DNA of 37,100 nucleotides, taken from positions 1 to 37,100 of the forward strand of contig NW_021836869.1 of NCBI RefSeq assembly GCF_006345805.1, given 5' to 3'. The notes beneath the pieces were generated by a model, which saw only the letters and a list, made by a program, of their open reading frames with translations, was not told the origin of the DNA and did not search any database. Shown one piece after another: positions 10,614 through 33,319 of this stretch (the stretch's first letter is position 1; every line of letters begins with the position of its first letter). The position numbers and the translations under genes are program-made. This stretch comes from Octopus sinensis (taxonomy: Eukaryota).

Positions 10614-11827
10614 CTCTCACAGATATAACCAAGGTGGAAAAAAGAGAGATGAGAAAGGTGAAGAAAGAAGAAAAAGAAAAGCCGCAGAGGGAAGGAAGCA
10701 GCGGGATATTTGTAGGGGAGGGGCAAAGTGTCACATATTGAAAAAGTGGGTGCTTGGACGCGCAATGGCGTTGCGTGGAGAATGTGCTGCAGAGTGTAAC
10801 ATCTATTATTATGAGGTAAAGTGAAATGGCTAGAGAGTATAGTGAGAAACGTATTTTAAAAAGTCATCTGAGGAAGTGCATTCTACAACTGCGATGCAAG
10901 ACGATTGATTGCACATTATATCGCCTATGAGCTACAGATGCGAGAATGAGCCGAAACAATTGTAGTGGTTTTGAATTAAGAATCTCCTGAATTCTCTCTT
11001 CTCTATATGTACGTGTAATGAGAGAGAAAAGGAAAGGTTACGCACTGGGGTCGATGTAATCGACTTAATACCTGTGTCTGTCCTTGTTTCTCCCCTCTGT
11101 GTCCTTGTTTGTTACCCTTGTGGGTAATAAAGAAATAGGTTTTATACAATTGATTAATAATGGGAAAACAACGTAGCCTCAGTCCATGGTGAGGGAGAAA
11201 GAGTTACTGAGAGAGGAGAGAGGGAGGGAGAGATACAGAGAAAGGAGGAGAGAAGGAAAAAGAGGTCCAGAGAGATGGAGAGAGGTACTGAGTAAGGAGG
11301 AGGAGAGAGGGAGACAGAAGTACAGAGGAGGAGGAGAGATGTACTAAGAGAGGGGGAGAGAGAGGTGGAGAGGTTAACAGTGAGAGGGAGAGATGACAAG
11401 GGTTTACTTTGCTTGTGTTCAGGGTTCGGCTTATCAAGACAGCCCAATTCCCCCTGTATTGTTCTCAAGGCATACAAACAGCCAGGCTCCTGTTTTCAGT
11501 CTATTCTTTGATGTTTTTTATCCACAAATGTCTTTAACAATAGTTTGCTCTTCACACGCCCTGACAGGATGGTCATTACCCGAGGGGCATTGCATCTCTT
11601 GTCTTTTATCTTTGACTAGTTACAGATAAATATATACCCACACTTAGAAATAGAATGTCTCTTGAACTATGGTCTAATACCGAAGAAGCTATTAAGTGGT
11701 TTCATAATATCGAAAATAAGGTTAAATATAAATTTTTACAGTTAGACATTAACAATTACTATTCCTCTATCAACCCTATTGTACTCAATAAAGCCCCTCC
11801 TTTTGCTAGAAAATATATTAACCTTAA

Positions 11828-12249
11828 CAATAATAAATCTCTGAACGAGGTATAAACAGTAACTGCACGGCAATGTGAGGTATATTTGCCATCTCAATAT
11901 GGCTAACCACTAAGGGTGGGTGTTATTGTAGCTTGTAGCCCCAGGAGAACATCTCCTCCAGCTGGCTTTAGGCACACTGGTAAAACGATATAAGTATTTG
12001 CATTGGGACCCCTTTCATCGAAAACCGGTGATTGTCGTACGCTGATGACAGGTCAATACCTAGAAACTGCAGTCCGTGCGTATCACTTAGGTTGACGAGG
12101 GAAGGGTGACCTCTCTTTGCAAATACCATAAGGGCACAGAAAGTGTGCCTAAAGCCAGCTGGAGACGATGTTCTCCTGGGGCTACAAGCTACAGTAACAC
12201 ACACCCTTAGTGGTTAGCCATATTGAGATGGCAAATATACCTCACATAC
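11828..12249. mobile_element. inverted pLTR-like insertion (106-bp inverted arms) carrying a hammerhead ribozyme
   Basis: Arms at 11873-11978 and 12142-12247. Flanking direct repeat TAACCTTAA at 11819-11827 and 12250-12258. Hammerhead lies in the spacer. Confidence 0.8.
12028..12087 (+). ncRNA. type I hammerhead ribozyme, canonical core, predicted cleavage after GUC at 12074
   Basis: Stem I CGUACG/CGUGCG plus distal GUGAU/AUCAC. CUGAUGA at 12042-12048. Stem II AGGU-CAAU-ACCU with a C.A mismatch at its base. GAAAC at 12063-12067. Stem III AC-UGCA-GU is palindromic. Confidence 0.88.
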
Positions 12250-12439
12250 TAACCTTAATATGAAGGAAATTAATGTTATCCTCGTTGCTCAAAAATCCAT
12301 AATTAAGTTTAATAACAAATATTGAACTAGAAAAGATACACGAAATTGTTTTGATATCACAAAGGGCATCGCGAACTCGGCCCAAGTAACGGATTTCGTA
12401 GAGATTTATCTGTTATACGACTTGTATGATGAATTTTCT

Positions 12440-13052
12440 GAAAAAAATCAAACATCCAATCAACACCATGGTGTTTGGAGTGATCACTAGTGATGGGGAC
12501 GCTTTGTCTCCATTCATTTTCTCACACAGCCTCACACTCAACACGGAAGCCTACATCAAGTGCCTGGAGGAGGTAGTGCTGCCTTGGGTCAAGAGGGTGG
12601 CTGCTGGAAGACCCTATGTCTGGCAACAGGACTCTGCACCATGCCAGACAAGCAGGAGAACCCAGTCATGGCTGTCAGACAATTTCTGCAACCACATCAC
12701 CCCTAACATCTGGCCACCTAACTTCCCAGACTGCAACTCCTTTAATTATTATGTGTGGGGTGCAGTTGAGCGAGAGACCTACAAAACTCCTTGTAACACC
12801 AAAGAAGAACTGAAGGCAAGGATTATGGTAGCATTGACCAACTTAAACAAGGAAACCATCCAAAAGAGTTGCAAGAGATTCCGAAGTCATCTGGAGGCCA
12901 TGGTTGAAGCCAATGGCGATTTTATTGAATAAATTTGCTCTTTAGTATTTCAAGAAATTTTTAATGCAGTTTTGGTAAATATGACTGTTAAAACGAGATG
13001 TATCATTTTCATTTTTGCGTAATTGAGACGACAGTTTATTCACCGCATCCTG
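12440..13052 (+). mobile_element. 5'-truncated Tc1/mariner-superfamily DD37D (maT) transposon with right end
   Basis: MVFGVITSDG..YVWQQDSAP..WPPNFPDCNSFNYYVWG has 37 residues between the second D and the third catalytic position (here N, so inactive). Ends CACCGCATCCTG-TA. Confidence 0.88.
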
Positions 13053-32961: not shown

Positions 32962-33174
32962 CGCCATGTTGATTCGCTAGCTTCTGCACGCATTTTTTTC
33001 TCTCTCCTCGTTTCTCTCCGTGTTTCTTTTCTGTGTATCTTTCTGTTGAAGAGCGTAGGCTCGAAATGTAAAAGACTTGTTTTATTTATATTCCTGAGTG
33101 CCATACTAATACAATTGTTTGTTTATATTCCACCTGCCTTCGTCTTTTGTTTATTTTCATAAAGCTTCCCGTTA
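32962..33174 (+). mobile_element. short hammerhead-bearing element inserted in (TA)n
   Basis: Flanked by (TA)n on both sides. Homologous layout to 22128-22303. Its 3' part recurs inverted at 33221-33307. Confidence 0.75.
33038..33075 (+). ncRNA. degenerate minimal type I hammerhead ribozyme
   Basis: UCUUU-CUGUUGA-A-GAGC-GUAG-GCUC-GAAAU-GUA^AAAGA. Stems I and II are intact; core A6U and C15.2U substitutions. Confidence 0.68.
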
Positions 33175-33175
33175 T

Positions 33176-33222
<47 letters not shown>

Positions 33223-33319
33223 ACGGGAAGCTTTATGAAAATAAACAAAAGACGAAGGCAGGTGGAATACAAACAAACAATTGATTAGTATGGCACTCAG
33301 GAATATATATATATATATA

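Follow-up and report, generated by a model that had tools for sequence, protein, structure and literature searches.

A head-to-head insertion of a 354-nt hammerhead repeat in Octopus sinensis, a likely non-LTR retrozyme probably copied by Penelope-like machinery

The window analysed here, a stretch of 37,100 nucleotides of Octopus sinensis DNA (contig NW_021836869.1), contains a decayed Penelope-like reverse transcriptase (RT) that is split by a 420-bp insert (Table 1). The insert consists of two pieces of a 354-nt non-coding repeat joined head to head and is bordered by a 9-bp target duplication. Its inverted arms at 11873-11978 and 12142-12247 are 106 nt each and complementary at 102 of 106 positions, and the 'inverted repeat' of the window is the stretch of the monomer that was copied in both arms. 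Arms, complete hammerhead core, palindrome, 45-nt overhang and flanking duplicates all lie where the original prediction, made from the sequence of this locus, had placed them, and both 3' ends point outward as it had proposed. The right end is at site A and the left end at site B. With the monomer numbered from the base after C17, positions 219-255 are absent from the window copy, which has only one hammerhead; we infer from this that it cannot be a source element, and it is likely a dead end. The forward arm is 96% identical to the monomer, and a stem is predicted between 12192-12198 and the tail, across site A, with both halves kept in the distant relative L230.

Table 1. Coordinates of the features at the insertion locus
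Feature	Position	Strand	Basis or remark
Decayed Penelope-like RT before the insertion	11616..11827	+	tblastn matches to long ORFs with RT and GIY-YIG in this genome
Left target-site duplication TAACCTTAA	11819..11827	.	sequence, flank comparison
Inverted arm, monomer positions 68-218, site B 3' end facing left	11828..11978	-	96% to monomer
45-nt 'tail' between start sites A and B	11828..11872	-	left-arm overhang beyond the right arm
3-nt microhomology (ACT) at the junction of the two 5'-truncated arms	11976..11978	.	monomer alignment
Forward arm, monomer 256-354 then 1-173, containing the uncut hammerhead and ending (3') at site A	11976..12247	+	
Type I hammerhead	12024..12092	+	pair probabilities 0.8-1.0; variation among 88 copies
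Core CUGAUGA and GAAA around stem II	12042..12066	+	C10.1·A11.1 replaces G-C; loop II best read UCAAUA
Stem III palindrome ACUGCAGU (12066-73) and predicted cut after C12074 (C17)	12066..12074	+	
Right target-site duplication TAACCTTAA	12250..12258	.	2 bases (12248-49) separate it from the arm
Host RT after the insertion, collinear and in frame with the left part	12259..12439	+	one stop at 12323

The upstream part of the host RT is 50-59% identical to long ORFs from the same genome (tblastn, E 1e-15 to 1e-17), and the two halves match amino acids 26-84 and then 92-155 of one of them (L184), in frame across the duplication and with stops elsewhere. The insert landed in a Penelope-like element (PLE), as predicted. 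Intact relatives of the host encode an RT followed by a C-terminal GIY-YIG domain; the GIY-YIG profile scored E=1.2e-5 in L176 and nothing over threshold in L177, L178 and L184. No Pfam match was obtained for five peptides in the host frame, and a protein search with a 56-aa piece of the host returned none. The host RT is cut off by a fragment at 12402-12932 (plus strand, no Pfam match), which by its motifs resembles the C-terminus of a Tc1/mariner transposase. Dispersed SINE-like repeats lie in opposite orientations around the locus (9000-9127/13765-13892 and 9332-9423/14817-14907), and a near-perfect palindrome of ~200 bp centred on (TA)n occupies 33098-33295. Among named sequences, the host RT family has relatives in Octopus sinensis and Argonauta hians, and by resemblance only the fragment appears Hydra-like (PMC8557442; here and below, comparisons with the literature refer to the available portions of the cited papers).

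All core nucleotides of a hammerhead (C3-U4-G5-A6-N7-G8-A9, G12-A13-A14-A15.1 and U16.1-H17) are present at 12042-12074, with CUGAUGA at 12042-12048, C-AGGU-CAAU-ACCU-A at 12049-12062 and GAAAC at 12063-12067; the position of the cut follows from hammerhead numbering. Stem I pairs 12036-12041 with 12075-12080 (CGUACG / CGUGCG) and continues past a 3-nt bulge into an extension at 12028-12032/12082-12086. The proportions, with a 6-bp helix I and bulge, a helix II of ~4 bp and a short palindromic helix III, are as described in PMC4209133. A search with the Rfam hammerhead models, which had been suggested as a check, found no match in the window (E up to 1) or in the 501 nt at 11800-12300 (E up to 10), and the case for a hammerhead therefore rests on the genomic copies. 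The letters of a predicted loop contact, AUUG and CAAU, are indeed there; the contact itself is unsupported, because A12031 and U12032 of the AUUG pair in the stem I extension (probability 1.0) and the 4-bp complementarity is kept in only 29 of 88 copies.

Folding of the window's lone hammerhead places the active fold 7.7 kcal/mol above the best fold, with stem II weakly populated (0.06-0.08) in the monomer. In the natural tandem L116 the double hammerhead is predicted to be 17.8 kcal/mol better than two single folds, and 4.7 kcal/mol above the unconstrained minimum, and the self-duplex of the palindrome ACUGCAGU is calculated at -11.1 kcal/mol. The hammerhead is thus predicted to cut only as a pair, and self-cleavage of the window copy as a monomer, with its single hammerhead, is unsupported by these folding energies. 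As a circle, the 354-nt monomer is predicted to adopt a stable self-paired fold, as expected of non-LTR retrozymes (-100.2 kcal/mol, z=-2.9 against 60 shuffles).

The monomer is defined by the natural tandem L012 and has no long ORF. Searches of the 2.72-Gb genome gave 99 matches to a 34-nt core pattern and 587 to a flank pattern in which 48 core bases were left free, with no match for the reversed control of either pattern; with the 163-nt spacer as query, 2,491 candidates yielded 45 scored matches. The repeat is therefore present in at least 587 copies that carry the hammerhead. The genome holds hundreds of 5'-truncated copies of the circularly permuted monomer, some of them tandem; arms range from 24 to 732 nt, 64 of 231 segments are longer than the monomer and 4 span two cut sites. 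This is a non-coding tandem monomer within the 150-450 bp range of retrozymes, with one hammerhead per unit and duplications of more than 4 bp.

The tail is the most conserved part of the family, with 35 of 38 positions identical in L230. This distant relative (minus strand, first ~490 nt) is a diverged sister repeat of ~352 nt with an almost unchanged tail, a U3-A8 hammerhead with G10.1-C11.1 and the shorter palindrome ACCGGU, and it ends at the equivalent of site A in (TA)n. The 5,607 matches to a 23-mer of the arm were rejected as a copy number, as 23 of 30 sampled matches sit in another element. That element (L198-L225, e.g. L204:1208-1602) is ~395 bp long, with a TC 5' end, a 3' hairpin and CTAG, and a target between A and T, and these hallmarks suggest a Helitron-like element. 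It carries a fossil mini-insertion, composed of a short inverted tail end and monomer 112-173 between 10-bp duplications.

To follow the hammerhead across genomic copies, we used the first 100 listed matches to the flank pattern (contigs 1-3), of which 99 were recovered and 11 with indels dropped, leaving 88 copies whose selection depended on their flanks and not on the 48 core bases. Pair 3-8 is C3-G8 in 56 copies, U3-A8 in 23, U-G in 8 and C-A in 1. Stem II has A-U as its first full pair in 64 copies and G-C in 21. In stem III the palindrome is centred on GC in 79 copies; another 5 have AU there, and this double change would be of consequence only where one palindrome pairs with another. All four bases occur at position 7, and the core is canonical in 32 copies, of the U3-A8 form in 21 and U4C in 22. 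The paired changes count as one subfamily event each, which makes about four in total and not dozens, and U3-A8 is a known natural covariant (PMC4209133). Variants common to at least 4 copies occur at 0 of 8 essential positions versus 26 of the 40 remaining ones (Fisher p=0.0008). Rare changes, by contrast, are as frequent at essential positions (1.3%) as elsewhere (1.5%), as expected of dead copies. Since shared variants avoid the essential positions and rare ones do not, selection has acted on source elements and not on inserted copies. Both core conservation and stem covariation are thus found among the copies, which supports the view that the subfamilies keep the fold by paired changes and that the hammerhead fold is under selection. 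The paired changes at 3-8, in stem II and in the palindrome fit the dimer-acting type I hammerhead of a non-LTR retrozyme and not that of a pseudo-LTR (pLTR).

The window's C·A at 10.1/11.1, at the base of stem II and initially regarded as damage, is the state of 57 of the 88 copies, with G-C in 27 and A11.1 in 59; it is a subfamily trait and not decay. It takes the place of G10.1-C11.1, a pair called highly conserved (PMC4209133), and hammerhead activity of the C·A and U4C subfamilies is putative. In a tree that includes the hammerhead columns the C·A copies are nested inside the G-C copies (100/98); the tree without these columns lacks resolution, and we therefore claim no order of core changes. 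The third bulge base tracks the type of loop II in 82 of 88 copies, which amounts to one subfamily split. In L138, a U3-A8/G-C hammerhead is joined to downstream sequence that groups with a C·A subfamily, possibly through a template switch or conversion.

After removal of 5 duplicate loci, we mapped 155 insertions: 86 in a single orientation, 63 head to head and 6 complex. The outer 3' ends (n=223) fall at site A (164-177) in 107 cases, at site B (212-226) in 91 and elsewhere in 25, so that 198 of 223 lie at one of two sites whose modes are 46 nt apart. Where both ends of a head-to-head insertion lie at these sites (45 of 63), there is always one of each: AB 45, AA 0 and BB 0. One end lies elsewhere in the remaining 18, and matching ends occur in 0 of 63. 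Single-orientation copies end at A in 48 cases and at B in 34, from which independent choice would give about half AB; the observed 45/45 departs from this at p=3e-14. A further AB case (L201) is among five new copies of a sample not chosen by hammerhead, and the Helitron-like carrier preserves another.

Duplications of at least 9 bp border 35 of 63 head-to-head insertions, compared with 12 of 189 shuffled flank pairs, and 29 of 86 single-orientation copies, compared with 11 of 258. Outside microsatellites they measure 7-15 bp; of the AB insertions, 21 have a duplication in this range (median 12), 15 lie in microsatellites and 9 have none. Duplication and element end overlap by about 2 nt on average. 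The flanks are 82% AT, and 65 of 199 ends lie in (TA)n. Four insertions (L001, L061, L074 and L103; 4/155) interrupt PLE coding sequence of the host-RT type, which probably reflects AT-richness. Taken together, two 3' ends with an optional tail, an inverted 5'-truncated arm and AT-rich targets are the features of PLE-type integration. The one-of-each pattern is the Penelope 'tail' signature; it supports Penelope-like enzymes as the proposed mobilisers of animal retrozymes, makes such an enzyme the likely copier of the repeat and points to coupled priming of both target strands.

The cut site is crossed by 176 of 231 segments, a share inflated because most copies were chosen for holding the hammerhead. 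We saw no excess of 5' ends at the cut, with 5 of 231 starting within 6 nt against 8.5 expected. Crossing and supra-monomer segments without a pile-up at the cut indicate templates that were circular or uncut multimers. In 44 of 46 cases the two arms of an insertion resemble one another more than they resemble other copies, which would fit a single source, although conversion or shared age would fit as well. L1-style twin priming had been hinted at by the window locus, where the forward arm stops 38 nt from the start of the other arm; over the 63 insertions the inner distances spread over the whole monomer, and it was rejected as a rule.

We also looked for a partner element. No RT/GIY-YIG ORF is flanked by the repeat in the 155 insertions (1.5-2 kb of flank), where the arms continue as further monomer sequence, up to 732 nt, and never lead into an ORF; PLE coding sequence touches these insertions only as an interrupted target. 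The copies adjoining a PLE ORF that the original prediction anticipated were therefore not seen. The search for shared sequence, which covered a small number of the PLE families in the genome, found nothing similar to the monomer in Hydra-like L162-L195, Neptune-like L226-L255 or the four short 3' regions L256-L259, save for the related repeat inserted in L230. The tail search gave 947 matches and the GIY-YIG search 147. Several PLE families are represented among the host-RT relatives L177-L195, with frames up to 859 aa and asparagine-rich inserts, and some of them have a hammerhead with palindrome ACAAUUGU upstream of the ORF. Copies of a young family (L226-L255, L237:1-1944), presumably Neptune-like to judge from a linker motif, are 95-99% identical and have frames of up to 850 aa; their 3' UTR contains a hammerhead-like motif of the U3-A8 type, a tail of ~45 nt is optional, and the targets are (TA)n. 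Of 29 copies 25 were scored, and 23 of those end in (TA)n, a far higher share than the 65 of 199 ends of the repeat, which makes this family a poor partner match despite the similar tail length.

Four other explanations of the insertions were weighed. A MITE with terminal inverted repeats is suggested by the 106-bp arms at 96%, but the absence of matching ends from all 63 inverted copies, the 86 of 155 insertions without any inverted arm, and arms (24-732 nt) and duplications (7-15 bp) that are not fixed refute it, in agreement with the original prediction that this is not a DNA MITE. LINE twin priming is marked by head-to-head inversion, variable duplications and junction microhomology. The repeat has all three, and LINE-like ORFs occur in some flanks; a SINE-like RNA inserted by a LINE in this way is nevertheless very improbable, as the insertions lack a poly(A) or repeat tail, both of their ends lie at fixed sites inside the monomer, the arms cover overlapping parts of the template, and the inner ends scatter widely.

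In a third reading the element and its mobiliser are those of the explanation preferred below, but the hammerhead of the C·A subfamilies is inactive cargo and uncut multimeric transcripts serve as templates. Both C10.1·A11.1 and U4C depart from the standard hammerhead, the cut shows no accumulation of 5' ends, and hammerhead mutants did not impair insertion by an anole PLE in vitro (PMC11167929). Against this, within the C·A copies stem II has swapped A-U for G-C in 21, the essential positions are free of shared variants, and cleavage, better in the dimer, is described for an axolotl retrozyme whose helix II has a U·U mismatch at its base (PMC7229834), so that we regard inactive cargo as improbable. 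Somewhat less so, though still unlikely, is the pLTR-only insertion of the original prediction, in which the repeat is the pLTR of an autonomous PLE and the insertions are its short truncated copies. PLE ends do show a tail, an inverted truncated arm and 8-10-bp duplications, solo pLTRs occur (PMC3846280, PMC8557442), and the PLE families examined are part of the genome's set. However, the 354-nt repeat forms tandems as a self-contained unit, none of the 155 insertions has an ORF next to it, and the hammerhead of the repeat has canonical proportions, not the minimal PLE form with a long helix II (PMC4209133).

The size, the tandem structure, the lack of an ORF and the canonical hammerhead match non-LTR retrozymes (PMC7229834), and we conclude with some confidence that the locus contains a head-to-head insertion of a 354-nt non-LTR retrozyme, copied, likely, by a PLE RT/GIY-YIG protein acting in trans. 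Multimeric transcripts of the retrozyme are predicted to form a double hammerhead through the stem III palindrome and to release monomers that would be ligated to circles, the lone hammerhead being predicted to misfold. A PLE protein may bind the conserved tail region and cut AT-rich or (TA)n DNA with one nick in each strand, the two nicks being 7-15 bp apart; cDNA would be primed internally, from one strand at site A (~173 nt past the cut) and from the other at site B (~219). The insertions have the pattern of cDNAs that pass the intact hammerhead, often beyond one monomer, on a template that would be a circle or an uncut multimer, and that stop at variable points and are joined by microhomology. 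A single complex could hold the RNA through two RTs, one positioned at A and the other at B, each of which would take one of the nicked strands as primer, and single-orientation copies may be events in which one primer prevailed. The anole Poseidon PLE protein offers a precedent: in vitro it nicks both strands, prefers AT-rich DNA and starts cDNA at two internal RNA sites whose interval equals the genomic tail; it is predicted to be a dimer, and the study saw no strand difference in its start site and no need for hammerhead cleavage (PMC11167929). More tentatively, and on balance short of an even chance, an animal retrozyme may ride Penelope-like machinery without shared sequence, one PLE complex obligatorily priming two strands at A and B on a circular template, together with an active C10.1·A11.1 hammerhead. 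If this is true, coupled A/B priming on a circular template would account for the tails and inverted ends of PLEs; an earlier proposal had invoked self-priming on an antisense template (PMC3846280).

The mobiliser of animal retrozymes is described as open, with PLEs the favoured guess (PMC7229834 and the reviews PMC7761336 and PMC11722881). The octopus repeat carries the PLE integration signature in countable form and supports that proposal, and sequence alone suffices to run the same census of ends on the retrozymes of coral, mussel and axolotl. The 45/45 rule also constrains how PLEs build tails and inverted ends, and the subfamilies amount to a natural mutagenesis series of the hammerhead core. 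Our literature search returned no paper on a cephalopod retrozyme, though supplements, Repbase or Dfam may list the family or the C·A variant. The available main text of a 2026 Octopus vulgaris repeat annotation has no mention of hammerhead, ribozyme or retrozyme (PMC13282606).

Among known systems, Chlamys PLE derivatives such as MRC1 (PMC8557442) are likewise short, non-coding, inserted in tandem and moved by PLEs; their 3' sequence is also found in the partner element and most have no hammerhead, whereas no shared sequence was found for the octopus repeat in the families searched. Hammerhead satellites of newts, schistosomes and cave crickets (PMC4209133, PMC2837043) have the same palindromic helix III, double-hammerhead logic, free position 7 and compensatory changes; unlike them, the octopus insertions are dispersed with readable junctions, and 10.1/11.1 is non-paired in most sampled copies. 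Closest in build are the metazoan non-LTR retrozymes of coral, mussel (~350-390 bp) and axolotl (331/353 bp), with the same 150-450 bp non-coding tandem monomer, canonical type I hammerhead, short palindromic helix III, duplications of more than 4 bp and PLEs in the same genome (PMC7229834). The octopus copies differ in being mostly truncated and inverted instead of forming long arrays, in two fixed 3' ends and a tail that the available text of PMC7229834 does not describe, and in the C10.1·A11.1, U4C and U3-A8 subfamilies, known here as genomic copies. With PLE ends (pLTR, inverted pLTR and a 30-40-bp tail; PMC3846280, PMC8557442, PMC11167929) the repeat shares two internal 3' ends, a one-sided tail, head-to-head inversion, AT-rich and (TA)n targets and variable duplications, and it differs in having no ORF, a 46-nt tail and a canonical, not minimal, hammerhead. 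Its duplications overlap the element end by ~2 nt, whereas the anole PLE starts without homology (PMC11167929), and where the available PLE papers place a tail 'often' or 'optionally' at one end, the one-of-each rule counted here holds in 45 of 45 insertions.
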